Shown piece by piece: positions 32,134 to 49,694 of a stretch of 57,870 nt of DNA. Both the position numbers and the translations under genes were made by a program. Position 1 is the stretch's first letter. Every line of letters starts with the position of its first letter. The notes below the pieces were generated by a model. It had not been told where the DNA came from. It did not search any database and worked only from the letters and a program-made list of their open reading frames with translations. Origin of the DNA: Candidatus Margulisiibacteriota bacterium (GTDB lineage: Bacteria; Margulisbacteria; WOR-1; O2-12-FULL-45-9; XYB2-FULL-48-7); contig JBAZZV010000010.1 in the NCBI GenBank assembly GCA_041658645.1, positions 1-57,870 on the forward strand, given 5' to 3'.

Positions 32134-32214
32134 GTTTTAATTGTACCGCAGTTGAAAATGATGGTAAAGGGTTAGGCTGGTAGCCGCTGGCAGCCGGCGG
32201 ACGGCGCCGTCTTT

Positions 32215-32967: not shown

Positions 32968-32991
32968 TTGTCCGCCTTTCCTTTTCATCTT

Positions 32992-33477: not shown

Positions 33478-33563
33478 TATTATCTTGCCCGGGCCGTCCC
33501 GACGTTACGCCTGCCTGTCGGCAGACAGGTCGGGACAACCCAAGCCGAAAAAGCAACGAGGCT

Positions 33564-34229: not shown

Positions 34230-34274
34230 AGTTTCCCCCCATTTTTACGTCATTCGCCCCTCGTTTCCCAGGCC

Positions 34275-34454
34275 TCACCTCCTGTTCCTTGATTTCCATT
34301 GCCATAAAGCGGTTAAAACAGCCCATCCAAATTTAAATGGCCCAAAAAGATATACTCCCCGATCTTTTTCAAGCACTTCGTGCCTTCCCCCCTGAAACCG
34401 GGAAAAATATAACTCAAGATACTTTCCAAACCTTGATTCTTCTTTTTCCGCCAT
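34275..34454 (-). CDS. possible small ORF (MAEKEESRFGKYLELYFSRFQGGRHEVLEKDRGVYLFGPFKFGWAVLTALWQWKSRNRR)
   Basis: Hand-translated ~59-aa ORF with an AGGAGG RBS. Not in the ORF track. Confidence 0.25.
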   Translation of the reverse strand: MAEKEESRFGKYLELYFSRFQGGRHEVLEKDRGVYLFGPFKFGWAVLTALWQWKSRNRR

Positions 34455-34468
34455 AATAAGCCTCCTAA

Positions 34469-35161
34469 TTATCGCTCGATATTAGCACCGACATCTTCCA
34501 TAATATAGTCGGCTAGTTTATCCCTCTCGGCCCTTTTGCTTCTAAAATAATATCCTTTCATATATTTCAGGACCCTAACTCGCTCCTTAAGTGCTATCAC
34601 CTCAATATCGCCAGGCAACTTATCAACAACATTATGATGCGCTCCGATAAAGAGAATTCCGGTTTCATTCTCTTTTAGCGTTTCGCCTATTCTTTTAGCA
34701 ACGTAATTATCTCTCTCTTCTAATGTTTTATTTTTACGGCAGACATATTTAAGATAAGCAATGGTTTTCCCGATAAAAGTCCTGGCTTTCGCCAATTCCT
34801 TAACCGATTTATATTCTTTCATTACGATACCTATATCTTCGGTCTTTACCAAAATTGCCCCTCCCTCAATCAGGTGATCAATAATTTCATAATTCTTACT
34901 GCCACGTTTGACCCCATCCGCTACAATCTTCATCCCCATCTCCCCGTCCGCCACCAACCCATCCTGATAAACCTTATAGCCCTTAGGCTGCAAATTCTCA
35001 AAGAACTTAAAAAGCGCCCCCCAAAATGAGGCGATAGTCTGTTGATGCGCCGCCCACCGCTCTCGGCCGCAGATCGCTATTCCTTTTTTCTCTGTCTCGG
35101 CGGCAATCGTTCCCAGATCTGCGCTACTGTGAATTATGGGAACATACAGGAGTTTTCTCAT
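34469..35161 (-). CDS. hypothetical protein (gvp-island associated)
   Basis: 230-aa ORF. No family recognised. Confidence 0.4.
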   Translation of the reverse strand: MRKLLYVPIIHSSADLGTIAAETEKKGIAICGRERWAAHQQTIASFWGALFKFFENLQPKGYKVYQDGLVADGEMGMKIVADGVKRGSKNYEIIDHLIEGGAILVKTEDIGIVMKEYKSVKELAKARTFIGKTIAYLKYVCRKNKTLEERDNYVAKRIGETLKENETGILFIGAHHNVVDKLPGDIEVIALKERVRVLKYMKGYYFRSKRAERDKLADYIMEDVGANIER

Positions 35162-35297
35162 CTGCCTCGCTTTTTAGGGAAGTGCTGCCGCCTTCCTCTA
35201 CTATCTTCCCTACCACATTAATAATGTTCCCGATCCCCTCAAAGACCTGATTTATTCCAAGACTGGAAATAAGGGTTTTTTCGTCTTCGGCCGTCAT
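35123..35297 (-). CDS. possible small protein sharing the FEG.G...VVGK motif with the Hsp20/GvpH-like N-terminus
   Basis: Hand-translated MTAEDEKTLISSLGINQVFEGIGNIINVVGKIVEEGGSTSLKSE.... Its ATG overlaps the upstream stop (ATGA). Confidence 0.3.
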
Positions 35298-35617
35298 AAT
35301 CTCACCTCGGGCATCAGCTTCTTTTTCTGCAATACTTGCTGACGAAGATCCAGCATGTATTTTTGCCTGGCTTCCCTTCTTCTGATTCTCTGCATCCTTA
35401 GATCATTCATAAGTCTTTTAAGCTCTGCTCGCCTTTTTTCTCGATCTTCGCGAAAACCTTCGAAGATTTCAGTAACTTTTGCCTGGCGCAGATCTCGATC
35501 TTCTTCCGCGATCTCTCTTGCCAAAACTGCCTCAGGCTCAATTAGTTTTATGCCCTGCCTCACCGGCACGCGGGCGGCAGGCCTGGTTTTTGTCTGTCTT
35601 TTTTTCTTCCTAGGCAT
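35294..35617 (-). CDS. highly charged (R/K/E-rich) hypothetical protein
   Basis: 107 aa, predicted coiled-coil, within the gvp cluster. Confidence 0.4.
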   Translation of the reverse strand: MPRKKKRQTKTRPAARVPVRQGIKLIEPEAVLAREIAEEDRDLRQAKVTEIFEGFREDREKRRAELKRLMNDLRMQRIRRREARQKYMLDLRQQVLQKKKLMPEVRL

Positions 35618-35634
35618 TTTAAGATACCTCCTTT

Positions 35635-35931
35635 CTAGCCCATTACCTTGGCTTCCAATTTTTCTAACCGTTTTTGAAGCGTTTTATTTTCTTCTTCCAG
35701 CTTTTTAGCCTGCGAAGAAATAAAAGAATCCTGCTGCCACCAGTCAATCCCAATCTCCATCGCCTTTTCCACCGAACACACCAGAAGTCTAATCTTAATA
35801 TTTAACAGGTCTACATCCGCGAGCGAGATCTTAATATCGCCGGCAATGACAATTCCCTTGTCCAGAACCCTTTCTAAGATATCCGCTAAATTCGTAGCAT
35901 TGGTCGCGTGGGCCATTCCTTGCATAACCAT
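35635..35931 (-). CDS. gvpJ: GvpA-family gas vesicle protein (GvpJ/GvpM-like)
   Basis: LADILERVLDKGIVIAGDIKISLADVDLLNIKIRLLV...GIDWW is the GvpA/J/M core. AAGGAGGG RBS. Confidence 0.8.
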   Translation of the reverse strand: MVMQGMAHATNATNLADILERVLDKGIVIAGDIKISLADVDLLNIKIRLLVCSVEKAMEIGIDWWQQDSFISSQAKKLEEENKTLQKRLEKLEAKVMG

Positions 35932-35950
35932 AATTTTCTTCCCTCCTTTT

Positions 35951-36211
35951 TTACGCTATTTTACTAGCTTTAATTACCAGTTCTGCGGTTTTCTTGCGTA
36001 AATTAATTATATTTCTACAAATCTCGCAGACTGAACTGCCTTGATCATATTCCAGGCATTTAAGCAGAGGAGTGAGTTCATTTATTAAAAGCTGGGCTCT
36101 ATTGCCTTTTACTTTAGGATCACGGGTCTCATTTAAACTCCGGGTTATTTCTCTTGTTTTGCGTTCCTTTTGTTGGAAAATTCCGCAGTTTACTTTTTCT
36201 TCTTCAGACAT
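35951..36211 (-). CDS. hypothetical protein (gvp cluster)
   Basis: 86 aa with a CxxC. Good RBS. Confidence 0.4.
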   Translation of the reverse strand: MSEEEKVNCGIFQQKERKTREITRSLNETRDPKVKGNRAQLLINELTPLLKCLEYDQGSSVCEICRNIINLRKKTAELVIKASKIA

Positions 36212-36221
36212 GTTCCCCCCT

Positions 36222-36578
36222 TCACATTAAATCTCCTAACGGCCCGAGATTCAGATTCAGCTCTTCGTCTTTTACATTAAATATTTCTTTTAACTCTGCC
36301 ATTTTCTTATCAAGCTTTATAAAAGTTTCGCCCATTTTCTCGATTTGTTCATCAGTTAAAGAGCCACTTTCAACTCTTCGCGCCGCTTGTTTTTCCATGA
36401 GTTTCCTGATTAGCTCTATCAGGGTTAAGACCAGCTTTGCCAATCCCTGTTCTACCTGTTTAGGATCAATATTAATTCTCTCCGCGGATTTAAGCTTCAC
36501 CGCGGAATCCTGCATCTCTGCCGGATCCTCCATTACTATCGTTAAAGAACTGGATCCATGCCCTGCACTATCCGGCAT
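36222..36578 (-). CDS. gvpK: gas vesicle protein GvpK
   Basis: INIDPKQVEQGLAKLVLTLIELIRKLMEKQAARRVESGSLTDEQIEKMG...LNLNLGPLGDLM matches the GvpK pattern. Confidence 0.75.
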   Translation of the reverse strand: MPDSAGHGSSSLTIVMEDPAEMQDSAVKLKSAERINIDPKQVEQGLAKLVLTLIELIRKLMEKQAARRVESGSLTDEQIEKMGETFIKLDKKMAELKEIFNVKDEELNLNLGPLGDLM

Positions 36579-36579
36579 T

Positions 36580-36783
36580 TTAAGTTGACTCCTTCATGCG
36601 CGCAACTTCGTACTTTTCCATGGTTTCAACCGAAGAGACCAGAACCCGCAAGCCGATGTAAACCAGATCAATATCGGCCACCGAAATAACAATATCTCCC
36701 GCCACAACCGCTCCTTTGTGCAAGACCCGATCCAGCGCTTCAACCAGAGTTACTTCTTTCTTCTCATAATAAGGCCCGGTCAT
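36580..36783 (-). CDS. small GvpA-family protein (GvpS/GvpM-like)
   Basis: LVEALDRVLHKGAVVAGDIVISVADIDLVYIGLRVLVSSVETMEKY. Confidence 0.75.
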   Translation of the reverse strand: MTGPYYEKKEVTLVEALDRVLHKGAVVAGDIVISVADIDLVYIGLRVLVSSVETMEKYEVARMKEST

Positions 36784-37562
36784 TTCCCCTCCAAACTAGC
36801 GAAGCTGTAAGCTGGCCATGGGCCGGATATCTCCAGTTCCAGGCCGGAAGCCGCATAGGTTTTCTGTAAATCCGACACTCTAGATTTAAACTCGGAGACT
36901 TTCTTTTTCGGAATTAAATAGGCGCCGTTTAAAATCGTCTCGGCCTCCTTTATAGTCAGCTCTTTGGGCTGTAGTTTATTCAAACAATTTTTATCCGCGA
37001 ACTTCACCAGTTCTTCGTGAATAGCGGCGGCATCTTCGTTCATCTTTTTTTCGCTCTCTTCAAAAATCAAACTGGCTCTTTTCCTTTTTAAGAAATACGC
37101 CGCGCCTTCTGATTTATCTTTTATCGCCAAATCAATATCCTTGATATGCTGATTGCTGCGCGCAAGCTCTTCTTTTAATTTATTGGCATCACAATAAACT
37201 TTTACTCCCCATTCCTCTTTTCCATCAAGATTTAAAATAATCTCCAGGAAACCCTGGTAATTTTTCTCAAGCATAGCTTCAAGCGATTTGGCGGTTTTAA
37301 AGATGGTCCCGAATTTTATGGGAACAACTGCCGTCTTTTCTGCAAGGCGAGAAATTATATTATTATGATGCATAACTTTTTCTTCCAGCCATTTAGGATC
37401 TTTCTCAACCTTAAGTTTAAATGCCTCTTCTTGAAAATCATCAATAGTTGTTTTTTCAACCACCGCCGCTATATCTTTGTAAGAGATAGTCTGACTCCCC
37501 TCTCCCGCAAAATTTGATTGCGAAGCAGCGATTAGGCAAAATAAACAAAGTCCTTGCTCCAT
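36780..37562 (-). CDS. gvpL: GvpL/GvpF family gas vesicle protein (paralog 1)
   Basis: MEQGLCLFCLIA... N-terminus and the GPWPAYSF signature. Confidence 0.8.
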   Translation of the reverse strand: MEQGLCLFCLIAASQSNFAGEGSQTISYKDIAAVVEKTTIDDFQEEAFKLKVEKDPKWLEEKVMHHNNIISRLAEKTAVVPIKFGTIFKTAKSLEAMLEKNYQGFLEIILNLDGKEEWGVKVYCDANKLKEELARSNQHIKDIDLAIKDKSEGAAYFLKRKRASLIFEESEKKMNEDAAAIHEELVKFADKNCLNKLQPKELTIKEAETILNGAYLIPKKKVSEFKSRVSDLQKTYAASGLELEISGPWPAYSFASLEGK

Positions 37563-37583
37563 ATTTTTTATTCCTTATTGGTT

Positions 37584-37838
37584 TTATTCATGCCGATCGT
37601 AAGAAGTAATAGTTAAATCTTTATCCAAAACCACATCGTATTGATGTTTTTCCATTATCTTCTTGCCGATGGCTTTCATAGATTCACTTTCTTCCACCAC
37701 CTCAACCCTGGCCTCCCAACCGGTATCCACAACAGAGGTCTTGACCACAAAGGCATTGGGTTTCTTAAGCGTCTTCTTAAAGAAATTTTCAACCGTTTCG
37801 GTCGCGGCTACAACATCACCTTTTGTTTTTTCAGCCAT
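37584..37838 (-). CDS. gvpO: probable gas vesicle protein GvpO
   Basis: VVKTSVVDTGWEARVEVVEESESM...YDVVLDKDLTITSYDRHE fits the GvpO pattern. AGGAGGG RBS before MAEKTKG. Confidence 0.55.
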   Translation of the reverse strand: MAEKTKGDVVAATETVENFFKKTLKKPNAFVVKTSVVDTGWEARVEVVEESESMKAIGKKIMEKHQYDVVLDKDLTITSYDRHE

Positions 37839-37854
37839 TTTAATTCCCTCCTTT

Positions 37855-38049
37855 TTATTTTCCGCCTTTGGCGGAAACTTTGGTTCCACATTTTGGACAA
37901 TACTTATAGTCGTAGCTAAACCTCCAGTGATGCCCGCATTCAGAGCATCTTATGGTAAGCGCCTCTCCGCAATTAGGACAATTATCATGGTCGCTATAAG
38001 TTGTGGTTTTACATTTTGGACATTTAAAGGGACCGGTTCCTTCCCCCAT
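37855..38049 (-). CDS. double zinc-ribbon protein
   Basis: CPKC...CPNC and CSEC...CPKC pairs. GGAGGAGG RBS. Confidence 0.5.
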   Translation of the reverse strand: MGEGTGPFKCPKCKTTTYSDHDNCPNCGEALTIRCSECGHHWRFSYDYKYCPKCGTKVSAKGGK

Positions 38050-38220
38050 TCTTATTCACCTCCTCCAGCACTTTCTTTCTTCCCTTCAATCTTTTCCTTT
38101 TCGGCTTCCAACTTTTCGGTTAACTTTCTAGTTTTCCCAACAAATTTCCCTACTATTTCTGCAGGCGCCAAGGAAGGCTAACAAGACAATATCATGGAGG
38201 CTCAAAGGCAAAAATGTCAT

Positions 38221-38466
38221 TTATTCTTCTTCTCCTTCTTTGTATTTTCGAATGGCTTCCAAGCGCTCCATTATTTTCGTTTCTCTCTTTTGATACTCAT
38301 CTTCGGTAATCTCCCCCATATCTAAAAGGGTTTGGGCTTCTAATAACGCCTGTTGAGGCTTGGCTTCATCGGAAAGCTCCTCATCGACTTGGGTCTTTAT
38401 CGCCTCAAAGATCCCCATAAATCCCTGGACCGGCAGCATTAATATATCATCGATTATAAATGCCAT
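38221..38466 (-). CDS. gvpG: gas vesicle protein GvpG
   Basis: MAFIIDDILMLPVQGFMGIFEAIKTQVDEELSDE...LLDMGEITEDEYQKRETKIMERLEAIR. Confidence 0.7.
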   Translation of the reverse strand: MAFIIDDILMLPVQGFMGIFEAIKTQVDEELSDEAKPQQALLEAQTLLDMGEITEDEYQKRETKIMERLEAIRKYKEGEEE

Positions 38467-38566
38467 ATCAAAAATCCCAATGTCAAATGGATGTCCGCCT
38501 TAGGCGGATTATTTAAATAATTTATTCCATCATTTGTCATTTTTAATTGGTCATTGGCCATTAATT

Positions 38567-39301
38567 TCAAAACATCAGCTCCACATTGGCGAAATTATAG
38601 GGCGCCAGCGGCCCGACATATTTCAAATTTATTCGATCCTTATGCTGTTCGTGGATTTTATTCACTAATTCGTCAAAATCTTTTTCTTTCTCCTTCTCCA
38701 CCAAAAAGGCCGCATTCATTAGCCAGGGATCGCCATAGGTAGAATTCAACTTATAATCAACCGCCAATTTCTTAAATTTTCCCAGCAAGTCTTCAACTTC
38801 CTTTTCTTTTTTTATCTTTAAAAGTTCCTCAACTCTTCTTCCAATCTCCATTAAATTTGGATGGGGGGAACTTTTTAATTTTTTTATCTCCGGCGTTTCA
38901 GCAATTTCGGCAAAGATCGGTTCCAGAGCCGTCCACATGACCCGCAAGCCCAGTTCTACTTTACCCTTCATATTTTTAATCATATCCTTCAAGGTTGCTT
39001 CAAAGCGTTTTAATCCCTTTTCTACTACTTCCGCTTCACTCTTCGCAACAGTGCAAAAGCGCACCGGAAGCGCGGTAAATTCTTGCATAGCTTCCTCAAC
39101 CACCAGTTCATGCGGCATCAAATTCTCCCGCAAGGCTTGATACCTCATCTTGGGCGAGCGACTTACGACTGCGCCCAGCCCATCAAAAGAAATGGCATAA
39201 ACCCTGTCACTCCGGCCTCCGATACCCGGAGTCTTAAACTCTTTTCCCTCTTTAGGGTTATCTATAATGCAATAGACATATATACCCTCTTCGCCTGTCA
39301 T
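38567..39301 (-). CDS. gvpF: GvpL/GvpF family protein (paralog 2)
   Basis: GIYVYCIID... and GPLAPYNF. Confidence 0.8.
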   Translation of the reverse strand: MTGEEGIYVYCIIDNPKEGKEFKTPGIGGRSDRVYAISFDGLGAVVSRSPKMRYQALRENLMPHELVVEEAMQEFTALPVRFCTVAKSEAEVVEKGLKRFEATLKDMIKNMKGKVELGLRVMWTALEPIFAEIAETPEIKKLKSSPHPNLMEIGRRVEELLKIKKEKEVEDLLGKFKKLAVDYKLNSTYGDPWLMNAAFLVEKEKEKDFDELVNKIHEQHKDRINLKYVGPLAPYNFANVELMF

Positions 39302-40407
39302 TTTTCCTTTGCCTCATCGGACAGCGCCGCTACCAGAGCGCCTTTGGCTACCGTGCGCAAAGGCTGGGATGCCATCCGCACTGATTTTATGGCTAAGGGA
39401 AATTTAGATCGCTCCAAAATGCTTTTAAACCTGTCTGAAAATCCGGGAGGCAAAGAAGTTCCCCCTGATAAAATAATAGAAAGGGGTTTATCAAGGCGCG
39501 GCATCTTTTTGTTCTTTTCAAATTCCCTTTTTATGTTTTCAATAACATATTCAATGAGATGACTGTAATAGATAGATAAGGCGCTTTCTATTCTGGATAG
39601 GCCGGTTTCCTTGGATAGATCAAGACTGGTTTCTTTAATAGCAGAGATGCGGCTCGCAGTTTCATCGACACTCAAAGCTACCTGCTGATCAATCCAGTCC
39701 CCGGCCTTGGTAACGCTAAAGGCAACTATGGGAACGGAAAGGTAGGAAAGGCACATATTGACCATGCCGCCGCCAAAAGAAAGTCCGATCCCAGAAAAAT
39801 CTTCATCGCCTAACTCCGCCAGAACTATGGCGTGCGCCTCATTGATTACTTTAGGGGTATAGCCAAGCCTGGCGATAAAACCATAGAGAATTTTCTCATG
39901 ATAGATAACGTTGAAATCAGCATCAATTGGCTCACCGGGGACGGAATAGTAAACGATCTCGCCATCGCGGCGGGGTTTTCCTAAAACGCTTTTAATTAAA
40001 AGTTCTACCATGGGCAAAGCTTCTTTTTCCGAAGGGCTGACAATCCCTTTCTGGAGCGGTCGGCGGGTATCTTTGTGGAAAATATTGGCAAATTCCAGAG
40101 CTTCATCTCCCACTACGTACAGCTTGTTATCTTTGATAATATACTTAACCCGGGAATTATCCAGCATATTGCGGGTAAAATCCGTGTGTTCTACCTCAAA
40201 GAAGGCATCTCGCTGAGATCTAAAGATGATGGAATCGCCGTTTTTCTCCGCGAATTTTATAAAACAGGTCCCAATGTCTATCCCCTTACCATATTCTGCC
40301 TGCCTGCCTGCCCGTCCGGCAGGCACGGCTTTCTCGATTACCTTAACCATCTTTGCAACCTTCTTTTTAACTTTTCCGCCTTTGGCGAACTTTTTCCCCT
40401 TTACCAT
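39298..40407 (-). CDS. actin/Hsp70-fold ATPase (Hsp70-NBD/MreB/EutJ-like) with a Lys-rich N-terminal tail
   Basis: Phosphate-1 GKGIDIGTCFIKFA, connect/phosphate-2 VINEAHAIVLAELGDEDFSGIGLSFGGGMVNMCL, and adenosine motif SIILSGGTSLPPGFSDRF. The GGTSLPP and INE..A motifs look more Hsp70/MreB-like than ParM-like. Strong RBS. Confidence 0.65.
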   Translation of the reverse strand: MVKGKKFAKGGKVKKKVAKMVKVIEKAVPAGRAGRQAEYGKGIDIGTCFIKFAEKNGDSIIFRSQRDAFFEVEHTDFTRNMLDNSRVKYIIKDNKLYVVGDEALEFANIFHKDTRRPLQKGIVSPSEKEALPMVELLIKSVLGKPRRDGEIVYYSVPGEPIDADFNVIYHEKILYGFIARLGYTPKVINEAHAIVLAELGDEDFSGIGLSFGGGMVNMCLSYLSVPIVAFSVTKAGDWIDQQVALSVDETASRISAIKETSLDLSKETGLSRIESALSIYYSHLIEYVIENIKREFEKNKKMPRLDKPLSIILSGGTSLPPGFSDRFKSILERSKFPLAIKSVRMASQPLRTVAKGALVAALSDEAKEK

Positions 40408-40410
40408 AAC

Positions 40411-40932
40411 TTACCTCCCTTTTGCCTTTTTAAACGCTTCGACCGCGCCTCCGAGGTTAAACTTGTCTTTCTCATCAGTTGTAACCTTTTCAAGATTACT
40501 TTCCATCTTTACCTCCTCTAATTCTATCGGCGGAATGAAACTGGTTTTAATTTGAATTCTTTTCTCCTCATCTTCTGTCTCTCTTAGCCTTCTGACACCG
40601 GGACGATAAGACCCGCTTCTGACAATCCTCTCTTTAACCGGCAAGGCCCCTATTTCACGGGCAACTTCTTTGGCAACTCCTTTAGCGACTTCCTCCAGCA
40701 TTGACTTATCTACGATAAACTTCCAACCCTCACCCGATAAAAGCTTTGCTCCTTTGGGAGCCAGAGCAAAATATTTGCCCTCATTTACCCTCAAATATCC
40801 TTGTCGAATAAGGGATTTACAAACCAGATCCGCATAACCAGGAGATATTCCTAATCTTTGGGTAATCAAACTTCTCCCGGCCTTACCCTTTTCTCCGACA
40901 ACCTTTAATATCTCTTGTTCAGTTGTTCCCAT
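40411..40932 (-). CDS. winged-helix (MarR/PadR-like) DNA-binding protein with an acidic C-terminal extension
   Basis: EQEILKVVGEKGKAGRSLITQRLGISPGYADLVCKSLIRQGYLRVNEGKYFALAPKG. GGTGAGG RBS before MGTTEQ. Confidence 0.5.
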   Translation of the reverse strand: MGTTEQEILKVVGEKGKAGRSLITQRLGISPGYADLVCKSLIRQGYLRVNEGKYFALAPKGAKLLSGEGWKFIVDKSMLEEVAKGVAKEVAREIGALPVKERIVRSGSYRPGVRRLRETEDEEKRIQIKTSFIPPIELEEVKMESNLEKVTTDEKDKFNLGGAVEAFKKAKGR

Positions 40933-40973
40933 CCTCACCCACCATTCGCTTCGCTCATAAGCCCGCCACCCCA

Positions 40974-41969
40974 CTAGGTGGGGAGAGTAAGCTTTTTAAC
41001 CGAAAATAAATCACAACCGTTGCTCGTATATTCATATAAAAGATCAAAAGCCTTTTTTAACTCCACAAATTGCTTGGCGGCCTCCGGATTATCTGGATTT
41101 TTGTCGGGGTGAAGCTTTCCGGCCATGGCACGGTAGGCCCGTTTAACCTCTTCCGGAGGGGGATCTTCTACTATTCCCAAAACTGCCTTGGCATAGAAAA
41201 TTTCATCCGGAGTTAATTTCTTTATCTCAATAGTGGCAAAACTGTAAGGGGGCAGAGGGCCTACGCACTTAAAGTTTATTTTACCCTCATACTTTCTATC
41301 TAATTCCGCTAGTTCCTGTTCAAAGACCTCCTTTTTATCTTTATCAAGCAAAAAAGCTGTATTGAAAATCATCCTGTCATTTAAAGTAGCATGCTTACAA
41401 AAAGCGCCAGCTTGTCCGCCAGAGGCGGACAAAGCCGTGATTATCTCCTCGGCAATTCTATCTTTTTTTCTATCCAGGAAATCTTTAACCATTTTTCCAA
41501 GGATTATGCCACCCTGAATTCTTTCGCCGGGAGGCTTTTGAGTAACCTCGTCTTTGAAGCATTGAATCTCTGCTATTTCTCCTATCTCTTTTAAGACGCC
41601 ATTCATCTCATTCCAAATGCCCACCAAATCCAATTCGATTTTCCCGCTTAAGGTTTCCATAATTTCTTTAAATAGTTTATAGCCCTTTTTCATTATTCTT
41701 TGAGTTTCGTTATCTCCGTCTATAAAAGTTCCAAATTTGAGAGGAACAACTGAATAATTCTGCATGACTTTTTCAATGATAGATTGATGTCTAAGCAGGT
41801 AATTTACTAGCTCATCTTTGCGCAGAGTCGCGAAAGGAATTGGTTTACTATCACTTACTACCAAAGAAATATCTTCATAAGGGATAGTAAAAATCTCCCC
41901 ACCGATCCCCTGGATATCAAAGGTCTGCAGCTTATTGTCCGGGATGACACAATAGAGGTATTTCATCAA
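40974..41969 (-). CDS. GvpL/GvpF family protein (paralog 3) fused to a C-terminal J-domain
   Basis: [11 protein letters not shown]... and VGPLPPYSF (GvpF), followed by EEVKRAYRAMAGKLHPDKNPDNPEAAKQFVELKKAFDLL, a DnaJ J-domain with the HPD tripeptide. Confidence 0.75.
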   Translation of the reverse strand: MMKYLYCVIPDNKLQTFDIQGIGGEIFTIPYEDISLVVSDSKPIPFATLRKDELVNYLLRHQSIIEKVMQNYSVVPLKFGTFIDGDNETQRIMKKGYKLFKEIMETLSGKIELDLVGIWNEMNGVLKEIGEIAEIQCFKDEVTQKPPGERIQGGIILGKMVKDFLDRKKDRIAEEIITALSASGGQAGAFCKHATLNDRMIFNTAFLLDKDKKEVFEQELAELDRKYEGKINFKCVGPLPPYSFATIEIKKLTPDEIFYAKAVLGIVEDPPPEEVKRAYRAMAGKLHPDKNPDNPEAAKQFVELKKAFDLLYEYTSNGCDLFSVKKLTLPT

Positions 41970-44143
41970 CTCACCCCCGCTTCTCCTCTTCTCTTATAAA
42001 GAGAGGGGGATGGGGGATGAGTTTTTATTTCCTTGATCGCCTGACTAAAATAGGGCCTATCAATTTCAAACTTCGAATAATCCAGTTTCCTGCCCTTAGC
42101 TTTATCGATAAAATCTCTAATCGCTAACATAGATGCTCGCCGGCAAATAGCTTCGATGTCGGCGCCGGAAAGCTCCCCGGTCTTTTCAGCCAATTCGGAA
42201 AAATCAACCTCTTTAGCTAAAGGCTTATCTTTGGCATGGATTTTAAAAATCTCGACTCTGGTCTTCTTATCCGGCAAAGGCAGTTCAAACTTCAGATCAA
42301 ACCGGCCTGAACGGAGCAAGGCGGAATCGACCATATCAAAACGATTGGTAGCGGCTAAAACAACCACTCCTTTAAGCTCTTCAATGCCATCCAGTTCAGT
42401 TAAAAACTGACTGATAACGCGCTGGGCAACTTGAGAATCTCCTCCCCCGGCTCCGCGAACAGGGACCACGCTTTCGATTTCATCAAAAAACAAAATAGTC
42501 GGCGCCGCTTGTTTGGCTTTTTTAAAGATCTCGCGGACAGCCCGCTCGGAATCACCCACATATTTAGACATAAGTTCAGGGCCTTTAACTGAAATAAAAT
42601 TCACCCCGCTCTCTTTGGCTAAGGCCTTGGCCAAAAGAGTTTTCCCGGTGCCGGGAGCGCCATAAAGCAAAATCCCTTTAGAGGGCTTAGTCGCGGCTTT
42701 TTCAAACATTTGAGGATATTCCAGCGGCCACTGAATGGTTTCTTTTAGGTTTTCCTTGATCTCATCCAGCCCGCCGATATCCTCCCAACCCACCTCCGGG
42801 ACCTCCACAAAGACTTCACGAATAGCCGAGGGCTCCACCTCTTTCATCGCCTCCATAAAATTATCCATGGTAACTTCAAGTTTCATAATTTTTTCATAAG
42901 GGATCTCCGCTACGGCAAAATCCAATTGAGGAAATAATATACGCAAGGAGGCCATAGCCGCTTCGCGGCAGAGCGCCTCAAGGTCGGCGCCCACAAAACC
43001 ATGGGTGATAGCAGCTAATTTTTCCGAATTAACATCTTTGGCTAGCGGCATGCCCCGGGTATTGATGTTTAAAATTTCCAATCTGCCGTTTTTATCCGGG
43101 ATAGGAATGCTTATTTCCCGGTCAAATCTGCCGGGACGACGCAGAGCCGGGTCAATGACATTGGGAATATTAGTCGCGGCGATCACAATTAGCTGACCCC
43201 GGGACGCCAGTCCATCCATCAGCGCTAATAGTTGCGCCACCACTCTTTTTTCAACCTGTTTTTCGCCGCCCATTTCTTCTCTTTTGGGAGCGATGGAATC
43301 AATTTCATCAATAAATAGTATCGCCGGAGCATGAGCCGCGGCATCTTCAAAGACTTCGCGTAGTCTGCCTTCTGATTCACCATAAAATTTCCCCATGATC
43401 TCCGGCCCGGAAATGCTGGTAAAATAAGCGTCAGTTTCACTGGCCACGGCGCGAGCAATCAGGGTTTTGCCGCAGCCGGGAGGCCCGTAAAGAAATACCC
43501 CTTTGGGAGCTTCAATTCCCAATCTCTCAAAAATTTGCGGATACTTAAGAGGGAGTTCGATCATTTCCCTGATTTTCCGTATTTCTTTATGTAAGCCGCC
43601 AACATCCTCATAAGTTACCCGATGCGGCCCAGCTTTAGACGCTCCTTCCGTTTTTAATTTAATTTGGGTGGTAGGAGCAATAACTACAATTCCCTCCGGA
43701 ACTGCTTCTATTACTTTAAACTCCTGATATTTGGTCCCAAAAAGGAGTGCTCTGACTCGATTTCCCGCTATAAGAGGAATGCCTTCAAGTATCCGCCCCA
43801 TATAGCGGGTATCCTGGGAAGCCATAAGGGTTAAGGGTTGAACGGTAATGCGGGTGGCAGGCTGACTTTTAGCCGGACTTACTTTTACTTTTTCATCCAG
43901 GCCCACTCCGGCATTATCTCTGATAATTCCGTCAATTTGTATGAGCCCCTTTCCCCGATCTTCGGCAAAACAGGGCATTACTTTTGCGGGAGTTGATTTC
44001 TTACCCTTTATCTCGATAATTTCTCCAACCTCTACCCCGATATCTTTCATATCATCAGGATCGATGCGGGCAATGGCCCGACCCACATCTTTAGAGAGGG
44101 ATTCGGAGACCTTTAGGGTTAATGTTTCTTTTTTCTTTGCCAT
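41966..44143 (-). CDS. Cdc48/VAT/p97-like double AAA+ ATPase
   Basis: Cdc48-N-like domain plus two AAA modules (GPPGCGKT...DEID and GAPGTGKT...DEIE, with SRH regions). The track ORF extends to 44200. [12 protein letters not shown] at 44143 is the likely start. Confidence 0.85.
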
Positions 44144-44154
44144 AATTCTTAAAA

Positions 44155-44214
44155 TGTAGGGACAACCCTTGTGGTTGTCCGTTTTTTCGGACAGGGACAA
44201 GCCCTGTCCCTACA
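44155..44214. repeat. paired hairpin element (A+B) filling the hsp20-cdc48 intergenic gap
   Basis: tgtagGGACAAcccttgtggTTGTCCg tttttt cGGACAGGGacaagCCCTGTCCctaca. The outer tgtagggaca/tgtccctaca arms are also complementary. Confidence 0.6.
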
Positions 44215-44216
44215 AT

Positions 44217-44750
44217 TCATTTTTGTATCTTTATCTCCAAAACCCCATTCTTATAGGTTGACGCCATTGTTTCAGCTTTAACTTTTGAAGGGAGCAGAAC
44301 TTCTTTGTGATACTTCCTGTCGCCTTTTGCGGCAGAAATATCCAGGATATCTTCTTTGAGATCAAGCTTGATATCAGTTTCTTCAATCCCCGGCATCTCC
44401 ACCACCAGCAAGACGTGATCCTTCTCATCGAAAATATCGACCTCCGGTTCCCTTTCTTCTTCGACCACGGTTTTGCCTTCAGGGGTACGATGGATGTTGC
44501 CGAAGGAAGAGACTTTGGGCCCGCCTTTGGCCATGGTATTGATCGTGAAACCATACATCATTTTACCTTTCTTGCCGCCTAAACCCTCAATATCTATTGC
44601 CCCCGTTTTTTTAAGCTCTTCGCCCTTTTCCGCTAGTTTTCCTACAACATCAAGCAAACTTCCCAATCCCTCAAATATCCCACCCAGGTTAAATCCTGCT
44701 TCGACTTTTGGTTCCTCTTTTTTACCTTTTTTCTCTTTTGCCATTTTCAC
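44217..44750 (-). CDS. Hsp20/alpha-crystallin family protein (GvpH-like)
   Basis: ACD: DIFDEKDHVLLVVEMPGIEETDIKLDLKEDILDISA...GVLEIKI. GTG start overlapping the gvpF stop. Confidence 0.8.
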   Translation of the reverse strand: MKMAKEKKGKKEEPKVEAGFNLGGIFEGLGSLLDVVGKLAEKGEELKKTGAIDIEGLGGKKGKMMYGFTINTMAKGGPKVSSFGNIHRTPEGKTVVEEEREPEVDIFDEKDHVLLVVEMPGIEETDIKLDLKEDILDISAAKGDRKYHKEVLLPSKVKAETMASTYKNGVLEIKIQK

Positions 44751-45496
44751 TCATCCTCCTTTATTACAACATTCACAAAATTATACGGCGGCAGGGGACC
44801 AACATATTTAAACTGCGCCCGTCCGCCTTTGGCGGAGTATTTTTTATCCAGCTCATCAACCAAAGTATCAAATTCCATTTCGCGAGCTTTATCGACTAAA
44901 AAAGCGGCGTTGAGAAACATATTTTCAGTCAAAAGTTTTCCTAAGGCGATATTATAGGCGCTGTGGCGCAAATGAGTGAGGATTTCTTCCCCCTCCTCTT
45001 CTTTTTTCTTTTCAAGCAACCTCTCAACCAACTTTCCAGCTTCAATTTGTTCCTCCAAGCCCGAAGCCCCTTTCTTCTTTTTTGCGCTAACTTCAGGGCT
45101 GTTGGCAATTTCTTTATAGATTACTTTCATGTCTTTCCAGAATGCCTTGAGCCCCAGCTCAACTTTACCGTCCATATCCCGCAAAAGACTTTTAAACTCA
45201 CTATGTCTTTTCCCTAGAAGATTTCTTATCTCGTCGGCGCTTTCGGCAATACTGCAAAACCGAACCGGAAGCACGGTAAATTCCTGCATTACTTTTTCGA
45301 TTGCCTTTTCATGGGCAATTAAATTATCCCGGCTCAAAGTATATTTTGTCATGGGGGTATTGCTGACCACGGCCGAAAGACCTTCGCAAGAAATAGTTGT
45401 CACCTCATCCCCTCGCCCGCCAATACCAATGGAACCAAAGTTACAAGGGAAGTTCGTTTCAATAATGCAGTAAATGTATTTTCCCTCTTTATCCAA
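44747..45496 (-). CDS. gvpF: GvpL/GvpF family protein (paralog 4)
   Basis: GKYIYCIIE... and VGPLPPYNF. Confidence 0.8.
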   Translation of the reverse strand: MDKEGKYIYCIIETNFPCNFGSIGIGGRGDEVTTISCEGLSAVVSNTPMTKYTLSRDNLIAHEKAIEKVMQEFTVLPVRFCSIAESADEIRNLLGKRHSEFKSLLRDMDGKVELGLKAFWKDMKVIYKEIANSPEVSAKKKKGASGLEEQIEAGKLVERLLEKKKEEEGEEILTHLRHSAYNIALGKLLTENMFLNAAFLVDKAREMEFDTLVDELDKKYSAKGGRAQFKYVGPLPPYNFVNVVIKEDE

Positions 45497-45866
45497 CAGT
45501 TACACTCCCTTTTCCATGACAGGCCAGACAGGGCAGGCCGCTTAAAGCTGATCCTCTGCCCCTACATTGCTTACATGTTTTAATTGGCTCTTTAATTGGA
45601 ACTACTCCTTTCCCATGACAGACGACACAGGAGAAAAAGCTCCTGGGGTTTTTCATTCCCCGCCCCCCGCAATAAGCACAAACTACAACCGGCGGTTGTA
45701 CGGTGATGGTTCCTTTTCCGCCGCACGCCGGACATTTAGCTTTTTGAGTAGTACCAACTAAGCCTTTCCCGCCGCAAAAAGCGCAGATAAAATCGCTTTT
45801 ATGTAAAATCTGCCCTTTCCGTTTATCTAAACCTTTTTTCCAATCATAAGCAATCCACTCTTCCAT
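45489..45866 (-). CDS. DnaJ-type CR zinc-finger protein (6x CxxCxGxG)
   Basis: CAFCGGKG, CPACGGKG, CAYCGGRG, CVVCHGKG, CKQCRGRG, CLACHGKG. Confidence 0.65.
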   Translation of the reverse strand: MEEWIAYDWKKGLDKRKGQILHKSDFICAFCGGKGLVGTTQKAKCPACGGKGTITVQPPVVVCAYCGGRGMKNPRSFFSCVVCHGKGVVPIKEPIKTCKQCRGRGSALSGLPCLACHGKGSVTVG

Positions 45867-45867
45867 A

Positions 45868-46221
45868 CTAATATTGTAGGGCCATTCTTTGCCATTTAGG
45901 GACGCCTTGAGGGGCGCCTGTGGCCGGCAGACTTTTGCGCCTAGCCCTGCCGCCGGCGGTAAGTTGGCCCGCTTCGGCCGCCTGTAGTTTCCGGCTTTCC
46001 TTTTCTATGTCAGCTAAGCGCCGCTGAATTATTGTTTTGCGGCGTTCAACGATTGAACTTTCTTTCTCGAGTCGTTCTCTCTCTTTTCCCAGCATATATA
46101 AATCCAGGAAAGTCGAGTCTTGATTGCCTCGAGGAATAGAACGCCTGCCCGTAGAATGCAGCGTCCGCAGGCCATGAAGACCGGCGATGTTCACGGCCCC
46201 GTTTTTGCGCCGCTCTTTCAT
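45868..46221 (-). CDS. hypothetical basic/coiled-coil protein (gvp cluster)
   Basis: 117 aa, overlapping both neighbours. No family recognised. Confidence 0.4.
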   Translation of the reverse strand: MKERRKNGAVNIAGLHGLRTLHSTGRRSIPRGNQDSTFLDLYMLGKERERLEKESSIVERRKTIIQRRLADIEKESRKLQAAEAGQLTAGGRARRKSLPATGAPQGVPKWQRMALQY

Positions 46222-47150
46222 ATTTTCACCCCCTCGTAATGCTTATTAATTAACTCATTAACAAGTTTCCTGACTTTAGCCTGATTGGTTCTGCTACCCA
46301 CGCGGCTGGTCTCGGACGCCAGGATGTCAGTGCAAATTTCCCGGAAGATCCCTTTATCGGCATCGTGAGTTCCATTAAGCACCTTTAAACTCTTAGCAAT
46401 CATGATGCAGCCGCGAATGGTGGGAGCAAACTCGCATTTTCCGGATCCCCGCAGAGCTCGCACAATCCCTACAATTTCCCCGGCTTTATCCTTAGATATT
46501 TTTGCTTTAGCGGCAGTAATATCTATCTCTGTTTCTTCATCATAATGATCCAGATCCATAGTAATCATGCGGTCGCGCAGGGCATCCTGACTGCGGTGTA
46601 CCCCGGCGTATTCTTCAGGGTTGCTGGTAAAGATGGCGGTAAACTCCGGGTCGACCCGAAGATAGGACTCTCCTCCTCCTCGACCAACCGGCAAATCCAT
46701 TATCTTTTCCTGCAAAATAGAAAGCAAGATATTATTAGCTTCCGGACGGGAGCGGGTAAACTCATCATATATTAATGTAAAGCCGTATTTACAGGCCACC
46801 GTTAAGCGGTTATCCACCCAGCGCTTAACCATATCTTCTTCCACTTTCAAAACACGCGAGATAAAGCGATCCACCACTTTTCGGATCCGGTAGCCGTATT
46901 CACCACCCACTAAATCAGAGGTTTTAAACTCTTCATCCCCATGAATAAGCACCACGGGCCGGCCGATTTTGCTGGCAATGTGCATCGCCAGGGTGGTTTT
47001 ACCCGTCCCCGCACCCCCGCGAAAATGGATAGGAAACCCCGCTTTTATATAAACCATAGACCGATCAGCCAATTCTTTCACCTGTTTTGTCTCCACAAAA
47101 TCGGGCATCGACTTTGGGTCCAAAACGGTAGTCATTTCATCGATGGACAT
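46218..47150 (-). CDS. gvpN: gas vesicle protein GvpN (MoxR/CbbQ-like AAA+)
   Basis: Walker A FRGGAGTGKTTLAMHIA, Walker B LIYDEFTR, 310 aa. AAAAGGAGG RBS. Confidence 0.85.
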   Translation of the reverse strand: MSIDEMTTVLDPKSMPDFVETKQVKELADRSMVYIKAGFPIHFRGGAGTGKTTLAMHIASKIGRPVVLIHGDEEFKTSDLVGGEYGYRIRKVVDRFISRVLKVEEDMVKRWVDNRLTVACKYGFTLIYDEFTRSRPEANNILLSILQEKIMDLPVGRGGGESYLRVDPEFTAIFTSNPEEYAGVHRSQDALRDRMITMDLDHYDEETEIDITAAKAKISKDKAGEIVGIVRALRGSGKCEFAPTIRGCIMIAKSLKVLNGTHDADKGIFREICTDILASETSRVGSRTNQAKVRKLVNELINKHYEGVKI

Positions 47151-47170
47151 TTTTTTACCTCCTTTTTTTT

Positions 47171-47230
47171 CGGACAGGGATAAACCCTGTCCCTACATGA
47201 TAATGTAGGGACAACCCTTGTGGTTGTCCG
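47171..47230. repeat. paired hairpin element (B'+A') upstream of gvpN
   Basis: cGGACAGGGataaaCCCTGTCCctaca tgataa tgtagGGACAAcccttgtggTTGTCCg, the same family as 44155-44214 in the opposite order. Confidence 0.6.
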
Positions 47231-47236
47231 TAAAAT

Positions 47237-47557
47237 CTATTTCCCTACCAACCCAGTCCCCTGACACTCAAGACACGGAAGATCGCCTTTGCCTATATTG
47301 CGTCCGGTGCCCTTACAGGCAGAACACTTTTTATCACTGCGCTTACCTGGAATTACTCCCTTGCCCCGGCAGGCAATGCAGGTATTGCGGGTTTGGGGTT
47401 GGACCCCGCTTCCCCCGCAATATGCACAGTCTACATAGGGTTCTTCAACCGTAACCTGCCCGGCGTCACCGCAAACCTGGCAGTTAGCCAACTCCGAGAG
47501 AAGGTCAAAAGGATCTTTGCCCGTGCCTTTACAAAAGGCACATTTTATTTTCGGCAT
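47237..47557 (-). CDS. DnaJ-type CR zinc-finger protein (6x CxxCxGxG)
   Basis: CAFCKGTG, CQVCGDAG, CAYCGGSG, CIACRGKG, CSACKGTG, CLECQGTG. Confidence 0.65.
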   Translation of the reverse strand: MPKIKCAFCKGTGKDPFDLLSELANCQVCGDAGQVTVEEPYVDCAYCGGSGVQPQTRNTCIACRGKGVIPGKRSDKKCSACKGTGRNIGKGDLPCLECQGTGLVGK

Positions 47558-47572
47558 AACCTTGCCCTCCTT

Positions 47573-48229
47573 TTAGCTCTTTCTCGGTCTTCCTCTTTTA
47601 CCTTTTTTCTTTGGCTTAGCGGATTCTTCTACTGTCTTAACTTCTATGCCCGCGGCAATGGGTTTGCCTTTTTCAATTTTTATAGCAACCCCATGCCTAG
47701 CTTTTTCCATCTGCTCCGCCATTTTCTGCCAGGCACCGCTTGCCGCTGTCATGTCATCCTTAACCTCAGCCAAATAACTACTTACTTCTTTATCTATTTC
47801 CATTATTCTCTTCTGAATTCCAGATAACATGGCCTTGAAATCTTTCAACCTATTCGTTTCTCCAGTCTTCAATGCTTCTTCAAGAGCTTCAGCCATTTCC
47901 TTATGCTCCTTCTGAAGTTCTTTAAGCATTCTCTTTACATTGCTGACTAAATCTTCAGCAAATTTGGCTAGATCCTTTGCCTGTGCGGTAGCCATCTTCC
48001 TGTGGTCGCCAGCAAAACCCTTTAATAGGCCACTGGTTGTATCCACCAAATCACCCACAAAGGAACTTAAATCTTTCCTTTGCTCCGCACCCATTTTCAC
48101 CCGATCCCGGTTAAAGCCCTTAAGGGTATCATGGGTATCTGAAAAAATATTCCCTAAAACACTTATTCTGGCATCATAATCGCCTACAATTTTATCCGCT
48201 AAACTTTTCATCTCTTGTGCAATTGACAT
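47573..48229 (-). CDS. GvpC-like repeat protein (33-residue repeats) with a basic AT-hook-like C-terminus
   Basis: LKGFNRDRVKMGAEQRKDLSSFVGDLV and LKGFAGDHRKMATAQAKDLAKFAEDLV lie 33 residues apart. C-terminal KKKGKRGRPRKS. Confidence 0.5.
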   Translation of the reverse strand: MSIAQEMKSLADKIVGDYDARISVLGNIFSDTHDTLKGFNRDRVKMGAEQRKDLSSFVGDLVDTTSGLLKGFAGDHRKMATAQAKDLAKFAEDLVSNVKRMLKELQKEHKEMAEALEEALKTGETNRLKDFKAMLSGIQKRIMEIDKEVSSYLAEVKDDMTAASGAWQKMAEQMEKARHGVAIKIEKGKPIAAGIEVKTVEESAKPKKKGKRGRPRKS

Positions 48230-48284
48230 TTCCCTTACCTCCTCTTATTTGACATAAACTTTCGAATCCCTGTCTGCCGGCAGG

Positions 48285-49040
48285 CTATTTTGTGGCAGTC
48301 ATCACCCCCTTTCCTCCTACGCCCTTCCACCTTCGCTCTTCGAGCTCCGGCGGACAAGCCGGGCTTCGGAGGACACGCTTTTTCGCCATGGTTAAAGATA
48401 AACTGCGCCAGGACCCGGCTGCGGCTATCCTTTCTTCCTGAAAGCCCTTGAGCATGGCTTTAAAGTCTCTTATTCTTATGGTTTCGCCTTTACTTAAAAG
48501 CCCCCTTATTCCTTTCGCCAACTCCTCATTTTCTTTACGATATTCGGCAACTTGGGCCTGGAAACCCTTAAGCATTTTTGTTACTTGATCCTGCCGCGCC
48601 AGCTGCTGCTTTTTAATTTCAGAGAACTTGGCCTTAAACTCGTCCAGCCGAATTTGCTCACCGGCGACTAATTGTTTATTGAAATCCGCAAATCCTTCCT
48701 TTAATGTCCCGGCAACCGCCTTTTGCTCCGCCAGATAATCTTCCAAAAGTTTCTTTACCTCTTTTTCCCGATTGCTTTGCTCTTCCAAAATCCCCCGCAT
48801 CATTTGATCAAAATCCTTATGCCGCAGGGAGTCGGTTTTGGCCAATTTCTCACGGAGTTCTTTGCTTAACGATTCTCTTTCTTCCCGGGTTTCAAGCAGG
48901 GCTTTTTGAAAACCATCCAGCATTTGGTGGGTATCAGAAAAAATGCATTCTATCGAAGCGATGCGGTCTTCATAAGAAGAAATAACATCACAAGCAAGGA
49001 ACTGCATCTTTTCCGCGACATTTGATACGCCGTCAACCAT
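48285..49040 (-). CDS. GvpC-like repeat protein (paralog)
   Basis: Repeated MLDGFQ / TLKEGF / MLKGFQ and R.(D/E)FKA units. Shares the N-terminal IFSDTH..L.GF with the 47573 protein. Confidence 0.5.
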   Translation of the reverse strand: MVDGVSNVAEKMQFLACDVISSYEDRIASIECIFSDTHQMLDGFQKALLETREERESLSKELREKLAKTDSLRHKDFDQMMRGILEEQSNREKEVKKLLEDYLAEQKAVAGTLKEGFADFNKQLVAGEQIRLDEFKAKFSEIKKQQLARQDQVTKMLKGFQAQVAEYRKENEELAKGIRGLLSKGETIRIRDFKAMLKGFQEERIAAAGSWRSLSLTMAKKRVLRSPACPPELEERRWKGVGGKGVMTATK

Positions 49041-49134
49041 TTCTACCTCCGATTATTTTAAGAAAGATTCCTGGTGCAGAATGCCTTATTCCGGGATTCC
49101 TCAGCAAGAATCGTTCCCATAAGTTTCAAGAAAC

Positions 49135-49344
49135 TTACGCTGCTGCGGTTGCCGTGAGGCCTACTGCTTCAGCATATTTCAAGAATGTCTCAACACCGGC
49201 GACCACAACTCTGGCTTCAATCGCCAGAAGCTCGATCCCGACTAAGGATATCCTTACCCACGCGTCAATCACGATGCCCTTATCGAGAATGCGATCGATG
49301 ACTTCTACCAAGCTGGAACTTCCAATTGCTTTTTCAACTGCCAT
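49135..49344 (-). CDS. gvpA: gas vesicle structural protein GvpA
   Basis: [64 protein letters not shown] is near-identical to canonical GvpA. AAAGGAGGTGA RBS. Confidence 0.95.
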
Positions 49345-49375
49345 GTTTTTTCACCTCCTTTTGTTTATAATATAA

Positions 49376-49642: not shown

Positions 49643-49694
<52 letters not shown>

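Follow-up and report, generated by a model that had tools for sequence, protein, structure and literature searches.

A volactin-family actin homologue and its upstream partner form a conserved gene pair of one widespread type of gas-vesicle cluster

Gas vesicles are regarded as self-assembling protein shells, and the accessory proteins known for them act as nucleators, chaperones, AAA+ ATPases, or clustering factors. To our knowledge, no cytoskeletal component has been described for them. Among the closest described systems are volactin (VolA, HVO_2015; Pfam family PF25216), which as the founding member of its family forms dynamic filaments in Haloferax volcanii in vivo that span the cytoplasm with their tips touching the membrane, and which affects the rod-to-disk transition (PMC10869688); MamK, an actin that is encoded inside the cluster of the organelle it organises, the magnetosome, and works through an adaptor (with MamJ and MamY); and ParM/ParR/parC together with CorMR of Anabaena, in which an actin-like filament is joined to a small adaptor with an N-domain of nucleic-acid-binding type and a C-terminal tail, CorMR showing that a ParMR-type module can take on a task other than handling DNA (bioRxiv 10.1101/2025.06.27.661541). 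Here we analyse a stretch of 57,870 nucleotides from a Candidatus Margulisiibacteriota bacterium (contig JBAZZV010000010.1, assembly GCA_041658645.1; the window hereafter), in which a gas-vesicle (gvp) gene cluster holds the gene of a 369-residue actin homologue and, directly upstream, that of a partner protein. The actin homologue belongs to a distinct volactin subfamily, regularly present in one widespread type of gvp cluster, and makes up a two-gene module with the upstream protein. Our literature searches found no work linking gas vesicles with an actin homologue, in agreement with an earlier note on this DNA that took such a protein to be new for gas vesicles; subscription journals lie largely outside the coverage of these searches, so that a prior mention is possible. 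The genome paper of Scalindua rubra counts 11 gvp genes and makes no mention of an actin.

The 369-residue protein matches the Volactin family (PF25216) at 305.3 bits (cut-off 35; E = 7.7e-91), with residues 41-361 aligned to positions 3-321 of the 321 in the profile, and it stops about eight residues past the actin fold. An identical protein is deposited as hypothetical in a Candidatus Margulisiibacteriota metagenome-assembled genome (MAG), and a GGGAGG Shine-Dalgarno sequence lies 7 nucleotides before the ATG. The nucleotide-binding motifs that the earlier note had picked out are all found (GIDIGT at residues 42-47, INEAHAIVLA at 188-197, FGGGMVN at 211-217, and ILSGGTSLPP at 312-321), as is the lysine-rich N-terminal tail, with 11 Lys and 2 Arg vs 2 Glu in the first 39 residues. 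The volactin nucleotide site is complete (D44, T47, E190, S210, G212, G214, M215, N217, G315, G316, and T317); E190 stands at the position of the catalytic Glu in MreB, ParM, and Hsp70. Across 77 family members, the D-x-G-T, Glu, S-x-G-x-G-M-x-N, and G-G-T residues are invariant or nearly so. Ser replaces the phosphate-2 Asp throughout the family (S210 in S-F-G-G-G-M-x-N), haloarchaeal homologues included, and is thus a family trait and no defect of the window copy. An AlphaFold model built on the 77-sequence alignment has a predicted local distance difference test score (pLDDT) of 90.6 and is confident except for the first ~39 residues: the four-subdomain actin fold takes up residues 41-361, and the tail of residues 1-39 is predicted to be disordered (pLDDT <50). 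A model from the shallow alignment of 16 close relatives (pLDDT 57) was discarded.

Placement within the actin/Hsp70 superfamily, which the earlier note had proposed to settle among Hsp70, MreB, MamK, ParM, FtsA, and EutJ, comes out in the cytoskeletal branch by both profile and fold searches (Table 1). A single-sequence phmmer search of the PDB with the 369-residue protein gave nothing significant; the family profile did match, with MamK as the closest solved relative. Fold searches put BeeR, MreB, MamK, and crenactin on top, and Foldseek places MreB and MamK first, MamK with the best template-modelling (TM) scores (0.67/0.75). A Pfam scan of the protein at E <= 10 returned no match to HSP70 (PF00012), MreB_Mbl, or a kinase family; its sub-threshold matches were to ALP_N (22.8 bits, cut-off 26.3, N-terminal 65 residues only) and Actin (E = 0.013). 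The protein therefore sits in the cytoskeletal branch and not in the chaperone or kinase branch of the superfamily. Since its closest relatives are not kinases, it does not belong to the metabolic branch of the acetate and sugar kinase/Hsp70/actin (ASKHA) proteins, which answers the sugar-kinase or acetate-kinase assignment that the note had set against its own readings. That it is a volactin-family actin of the filament type is a conclusion in which we place high confidence.

Table 1. Placement of the 369-residue protein. E-values are from the search of the PDB with the family profile; the figure in the last column is given as it stands in the analysis, where it carries no label.
Reference	Family profile vs PDB, E	
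MamK	3e-12	21.5
FtsA	3e-5	23.8
BeeR	8e-5	28.4
MreB	1e-4	26.6
EutJ	5e-3	20.4
Crenactin	no match at E <= 1	25.2
Hsp70 (BiP NBD)	no match at E <= 1	23.8
ParM	no match at E <= 1	23.0
Sugar kinases	no match at E <= 1	<= 18

The protein is nonetheless a member of none of the better-known families around it. MamK has a family model of its own (NCBIfam NF040964), which the window protein matches only partially, at 27.5 bits vs a cut-off of 400; identity to MamK is ~18-21%, and Pfam scans of the cluster found no mam genes, the neighbours being gvp genes. BeeR (Verrucomicrobiota) and MreB are ~19-21% identical to it, and the peptidoglycan synthesis genes to which MreB is tied are absent at the window locus. 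From volactin itself, represented in our comparison by haloarchaeal homologues, it differs in being bacterial and in a separate clade, in lying within gvp operons, whereas the haloarchaeal homologue lies near cell-shape genes such as RdfA, SMC-like, and CdpA_N genes, and in having a partner with a predicted winged helix-turn-helix (wHTH) domain.

The family is large, with more than 1700 proteins matched at E <= 1e-5 when counted as clusters at 90% identity, the best 120 of which share 66-100% identity with the query and originate in Omnitrophota, Nitrospirota, Planctomycetota, Saganbacteria, and unbinned metagenomes; the wider family comprises 1197 representatives at 50% identity (E <= 1e-3). 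For gene context we assembled 20 loci from a scan of one genome per species, in which gvp neighbours were called by tblastn with the cluster proteins of the window, four metagenome loci looked up independently, and the window. Canonical gvp genes surround the actin gene in 22 of these 25 loci (17 of the 20 genome loci, all four metagenome loci, and the window), and two further genome loci, on short or truncated contigs, show only accessory genes of the same cluster type. The four metagenome loci share a single order: GvpN, Hsp20, CDC48, GvpF fused to a J-domain (GvpF-J), GvpF, an open reading frame (ORF) of ~170 residues, Volactin, GvpF, GvpG, and onward. The hosts belong to eight phyla: Margulisiibacteriota, Planctomycetota (including Scalindua rubra), Omnitrophota, Nitrospirota, Chloroflexota, Bacillota, Aerophobota, and Patescibacteria. 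A neighbour-joining tree with 124 members of the family groups every gvp-linked sequence into one clade of 18 leaves, and no gvp context was found outside this clade among one haloarchaeal locus, four bacterial loci, and 80 metagenome loci, the last mostly from one Planctomycetota-like clade because they were scanned with a narrower clade alignment.

Within the gvp-linked clade, the relatives of the window actin are 53-89% identical to it. Across phyla the identity is 53-71% for the actin, as for CDC48 and GvpN, against 30-55% for the GvpF/L paralogues and 24-40% for the partner; proteins that form polymers typically show strong constraint of the kind seen in the actin. The partner and actin genes sit mid-operon between gvpF/L paralogues in nearly every gvp-linked locus, and a GvpF/L gene follows the actin gene in 17 of the 18 gvp-clade loci with downstream sequence, L013 being the exception. 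We are as confident that the actin is a conserved component of this type of gvp cluster as we are of its family.

Throughout the adequately covered related loci the actin co-occurs with GvpF-J, whose HPD motif is intact and whose gene is often adjacent. This strict co-occurrence and frequent adjacency speak for one of the two readings offered by the earlier note, in which the protein is an Hsp70-like chaperone: an ATPase consisting of a nucleotide-binding domain (NBD) only, which would not polymerise and whose cycle would be driven by the J-domain of GvpF, within a set of Hsp20, CDC48, and DnaJ zinc-finger proteins. We now consider this reading very improbable. Hsp70 is matched neither in Pfam (E <= 10) nor in the profile search of the PDB (E <= 1), while MamK, FtsA, BeeR, and MreB are matched in the latter; the protein has neither an interdomain linker nor a substrate-binding domain. 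The residues 'K..INE', taken up as a candidate Hsp70-like signature of the J-domain-linked clade, were rejected in that role because they occur elsewhere in the family (K in 25 of 64 and N in 28 of 64 other members), and the partner peptide described below is retained outside gvp clusters, where the family members have no J-domain neighbour. In two Anaerolineae clusters the gene immediately upstream of the partner-actin pair is that of a full-length DnaK (625 and 660 residues; L010 7493-9370 and L012 7311-9293), an obvious client for the J-domain; the same two clusters also hold three to six genes for DnaJ-type zinc-finger proteins. A variant of this idea is that the GvpF J-domain acts directly on the actin-like ATPase, instead of or besides DnaK, in which case it would control nucleotide turnover or filament dynamics and couple growth to the GvpF-marked site of vesicle assembly. 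We keep it in view because each adequately covered locus has both GvpF-J and the actin, often side by side, at a chance that we put as slighter still: positive sequence support for it is lacking, and the DnaK encoded within the Anaerolineae clusters weakens it.

The second gene of the module encodes a protein whose start is most likely Met15 of the longest ORF, in agreement with the deposited hypothetical protein P0121, and the related gvp loci that have enough upstream sequence show a homologous ORF immediately before the actin gene. In these loci the partner consists of a predicted winged-helix domain of ~80 residues, a variable linker, and a C-terminal module with the consensus I-K-I-K-T-x-F-I-x-P-x-E-(x5)-L-E-S-N-I-x-K-(x10)-D-I-x-K-x-V-x-x-L-K-K-x-K. 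The earlier note had described a wHTH protein with an acidic tail. The wHTH assignment is weak but consistent, HTH_24 or MarR_2 being matched in 6-7 of 15 homologues (best E 2.9e-5), the window partner matching HTH_24 below threshold (E = 0.074; 13.1 bits, cut-off 21.9), and the partner profile finding wHTH regulators as its best matches in the PDB (E 0.01-0.1). An acidic stretch does exist at residues ~119-150, but over the final 48 residues the charges balance (9 K+R, 9 D+E), and the C-terminus is a conserved module and not a low-complexity tail. The module is kept in all gvp-clade partners, even in those that lack the wHTH: L015 has the module but no winged helix, L006 and L007 encode it on an ORF of its own that follows one for the winged helix alone, and L017 has it twice. 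Hidden Markov models (HMMs) of the two parts, built without the four independent metagenome loci, recover both parts there (E 1e-17 to 1e-28; for the wHTH model, E 1e-23 to 1e-28 in all four).

Outside gvp clusters the two parts have different fates. Among all 7646 six-frame ORFs of the 80 non-gvp volactin loci, the wHTH model has no match. The C-module model, built from gvp-clade partners only, matches the same set at E <= 0.01 in 12 loci, each time at the very C-terminal end of the ORF that immediately precedes volactin; there are no matches elsewhere among the 7646 ORFs at this threshold, and nearly all weaker matches lie at the same place. The motif there reads ...(L/V/I)-E-(S/T/N)-N-(I/L/V)-x-x-V-x-V-K-x-A-K-A-G-G-V-x-x-x-L-A-K-L-K-x-L-Q-K-G, and the remainder of these partners is a coiled coil that belongs to no Pfam family. 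In the non-gvp loci L024 and L025 the peptide was not detected. In other family members, the N-terminal region of the separate non-gvp partners forms one polypeptide with the actin domain (BLASTP E down to 2.5e-19), an argument of the Rosetta-stone type for physical partnership; a search for the C-terminal peptide inside the fused long family members did not detect it. Because the actin and the C-terminal peptide of its partner are the only constants across contexts, the peptide is likely to be the actin-binding element, and because the N-terminal domain varies with context, that domain may select the target.

Fusions are common in the family at large, as seen in P0137, P0141, and P0152 (~730-750 residues) among other long representatives. 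Some of the fusions are tandem double-actin proteins, and others have long N-terminal extensions, among them zinc-ribbon or HTH-like leaders or the N-region of the partner (P0145, P0168, P0196, P0232, P0240). In the haloarchaea Halogeometricum and Haloarcula, a membrane protein precedes the volactin homologue (L021 4800-5699 and 12447-13067; L106 2920-3828). The one in L021 is CdpA_N-like, and the gene in L106 is annotated as hypothetical; the partner peptide has a weak match in the cytoplasmic tail (...IENSE...DVDDAVDGLRQLQGG), and the Halogeometricum locus also holds RdfA and an SMC-like gene. A membrane-anchored partner would fit the membrane-anchored filament tips of Haloferax, which is only suggestive.

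Table 2. Features of the gas-vesicle cluster in the window (coordinates are those of the window).
Feature	Position	Strand	Remarks
Whole gas-vesicle operon-like cluster	34469..49344	-	~25 co-directional, tightly packed genes
GvpF/L paralogue downstream of actin	38567..39301	-	Pfam GvpL_GvpF 2.6e-56; 4-nt overlap (ATGA) with actin stop codon
Actin homologue, volactin family, 369 aa	39298..40407	-	starts 3 nt after upstream gene; ends in stop
Partner (adaptor) protein, 173 aa	40411..40932	-	stops 3 nt before actin start codon
Partner C-terminal module, residues 126-173, IQIKTSFIPPIELEEVKMESNLEKV...AVEAFKKAKGR	40414..40557	-	candidate actin-binding peptide
Partner N-terminal winged-helix domain, ~residues 1-75, pI 9.6	40708..40932	-	weak MarR/HTH_24 matches
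GvpF/L with C-terminal J-domain fusion	40974..41969	-	Pfam GvpL_GvpF 1.3e-49, DnaJ 1.8e-13

Taken together, family, partner, and position lead us to favour the other reading of the earlier note, an MreB/MamK/ParM-like filament with a wHTH adaptor: the protein is a volactin, its nearest solved relative by profile is MamK, and the partner is built like an adaptor. We propose that the actin would bind ATP and polymerise into dynamic filaments, as haloarchaeal volactin does; that the C-terminal peptide of the partner would dock on the actin, by analogy with the binding of the ParR C-terminus to ParM; that the wHTH specific to gvp clusters would hold a gas-vesicle component, for example a GvpF/L paralogue or the vesicle surface; and that nascent or mature vesicles (or nucleation complexes) could in this way be tethered to filaments and spaced, aligned, or partitioned much as MamK does for its organelle. 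The vesicle-coupling role is proposed because, within the family, the wHTH is unique to gvp loci and because the pair lies between gvpF/L genes. The J-domain of GvpF, Hsp20, the CDC48-type AAA+ protein, and the DnaJ-type zinc fingers would then form a separate arm for assembly and chaperoning that uses canonical DnaK. The likeness to MamK lies in an actin encoded inside the cluster of the organelle and working through an adaptor; the partner is unrelated to MamJ, and the proposed cargo is a protein-shelled gas vesicle and not a membrane organelle. Polymerisation, binding of the peptide, the target of the wHTH, and a positioning function are what we infer for this pair, and for the model as a whole we judge the chances to be slightly better than even.

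The adaptor could have a different cargo. Winged-helix domains usually bind DNA, and the wHTH of the partner is basic, which would suit a type II partition system like ParMR in which the wHTH binds a centromere-like site and the actin moves the DNA of the island or chromosome, the pair having no action on vesicles and simply moving along with a horizontally mobile gvp island. By profile, the partner weakly resembles the archaeal centromere-binding protein AspA (E ~0.09), the GC content of the cluster is foreign to its surroundings, palindromic elements stand at three intergenic sites of the operon, and salactin, another haloarchaeal actin, aids DNA partitioning (PMC10869688). The mid-operon position of the pair in nearly every gvp-linked locus, however, is not that of an independent par locus; the order of adaptor and then actin is the reverse of parM-parR; ALP_N stays below its cut-off in the actin; the cluster is flanked by the chromosomal housekeeping genes topA and mutL; and a search for iterated centromere-like repeats or repeat arrays that might serve as wHTH sites found none. 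The palindromes were rejected as centromere or operator sites because they show no conservation across related clusters and because the changes in the stems are compensatory, as in RNA or REP-like (repetitive extragenic palindromic) hairpins. We consider partitioning of DNA by this pair distinctly unlikely.

The hairpin unit itself occurs in the gvp operon of the window before gvpA (49375-49405), before gvpN (47166-47235), and before cdc48 (44152-44217). On the transcribed strand it consists of an 8-bp stem and a 5-nt loop followed by CUACAU, with the compensatory changes in the stems, and RNA folding gives z-scores of -5.7, -5.8, and -2.6 for the elements. Exact copies of its core, ATGTAGGGACA, are present at the gvpN and cdc48 sites only (two each), the gvpA site holding a variant with two mismatches. 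No equivalents were found in related clusters, and the hairpin is probably a genome-specific REP-like or transcript-processing element.

The actin could also act on morphology, as volactin does in Haloferax, for example by adapting cell shape or stiffness to a vesicle-filled cytoplasm, with the wHTH protein serving mainly as a transcriptional regulator of the cluster and with no physical link to vesicles. The only known phenotype of the family is the rod-to-disk shape transition, NCBI names some family members 'disk-shape morphogenesis protein volactin', and gvp clusters commonly carry their own regulators. Yet a general determinant of shape is unlikely to be inherited only with a gvp cluster, and across phyla with very different envelopes, including the tiny Patescibacteria; what is conserved in the partner is the peptide also found in non-gvp partners, and the module occurs in proteins that lack a wHTH, which argues against regulation as its primary role; and the window has a separate regulator of XRE type, divergent from gvpA. 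The properties behind the NCBI label are known for VolA of H. volcanii only, and the label should not be transferred to the gvp clade, nor does our placement imply a shape role for the window protein. We regard this explanation as unlikely.

Several observations weigh against the tethering of gas vesicles that we favour. The one known phenotype of volactin is cell shape and not the positioning of an organelle (PMC10869688), and our comparison with volactin was made with haloarchaeal homologues (43% identity) and not with HVO_2015 itself. Because GvpF-J co-occurs with the actin throughout, a functional link between these two is possible. With a pI of 9.6, the basic wHTH could have DNA rather than a vesicle protein as its cargo, and Ser in place of Asp at phosphate-2 may mean that the ATPase chemistry differs from that of MreB and ParM. 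One relative that is 61% identical (L015) has no gvp genes within 7 kb downstream. The tree that places all gvp-linked sequences in one clade carries no support values, and all members of the clade come from MAGs or single-cell genomes.

Actin-plus-adaptor modules for cellular cargo are already known, and what we rate as new here are the cargo context, the C-terminal peptide of the partner, and its modularity. If the model is right, gas vesicles would be the second prokaryotic organelle with an actin of its own, after magnetosomes with MamK, and would be so in at least eight mostly uncultivated phyla, which would raise the question by what means a cell positions its gas vesicles, aligns them, and passes them on. 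For the young volactin family, the gvp clade is also the first functional context to be defined in bacteria, and the C-terminal peptide encoded by the upstream gene, with interchangeable N-domains (winged helix, coiled coil, and possibly a haloarchaeal membrane anchor), is a candidate for a universal partner motif. On the practical side, the pair could be added to gas-vesicle constructs for acoustic reporters to control the arrangement of the vesicles.

The gas-vesicle context that the earlier note had assigned to the pair is real: GvpA, GvpN, four GvpF/L proteins, GvpG, GvpO, and GvpK are encoded on the reverse strand within 34469-49344 (Table 2). Besides gvpA, gvpN, gvpG, gvpO, gvpK, and the four gvpF/L genes, one of them with the C-terminal J-domain, the cluster has genes for two coiled-coil proteins, two DnaJ-type zinc-finger proteins, Hsp20, a CDC48-type double AAA+ protein, and a zinc ribbon, gvpJ/A-like genes, and several unnamed ORFs. 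The J-domain of GvpF-J lies at ~41034-41183, and its gene is immediately upstream of the partner gene. The guanine-plus-cytosine (GC) content is 41-47% over the gvp cluster and two or three adjoining genes (window positions 32000-50000) vs 54-59% in the flanks. The low GC content relative to the topA and mutL flanks makes the cluster look like an acquired island in the chromosome, and horizontal acquisition is suggested by this contrast combined with the similarity of the cluster proteins across phyla.

Some related clusters differ in host or content. Complete-looking gvp clusters occur in MAGs of Patescibacteria, the candidate phyla radiation (Parcubacteria, Saccharibacteria, and Minisyncoccales; L008, L009, L011, L016, and L017); L008 and L009 are near-identical yet binned to different Patescibacteria lineages, which calls for caution over individual bin assignments. 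In L107 (2613-3548) and L108 (3375-4319), a ParA/ArsA-like ATPase (CbiA/ArsA_ATPase) is encoded between hsp20 and cdc48 and is a second candidate for a positioning or targeting ATPase in gas-vesicle clusters. Volactin-family proteins are also encoded by two uncultured huge phages of 485 and 595 kb (LR745208.1 337426-338418 and LR756511.1 548774-549790, respectively 41% and 31% identical to the window protein).

At the gvpA end of the window cluster, the XRE-type HTH gene (49952-50368), whose own end is a Gly run, is separated from gvpA by a divergent intergenic region in which (TG)8 is followed by ~33 consecutive G (49644-49692); this could be a phase-variable tract or an assembly artefact. 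At the distal end, two unnamed ORFs of 230 residues (34469-35161) and 57 residues (35124-35297) have no Pfam match and recur at the end of related gvp clusters (L003, L007, L013, and L018) with 44-70% identity; to judge from this recurrence, they are unrecognised components of the cluster.

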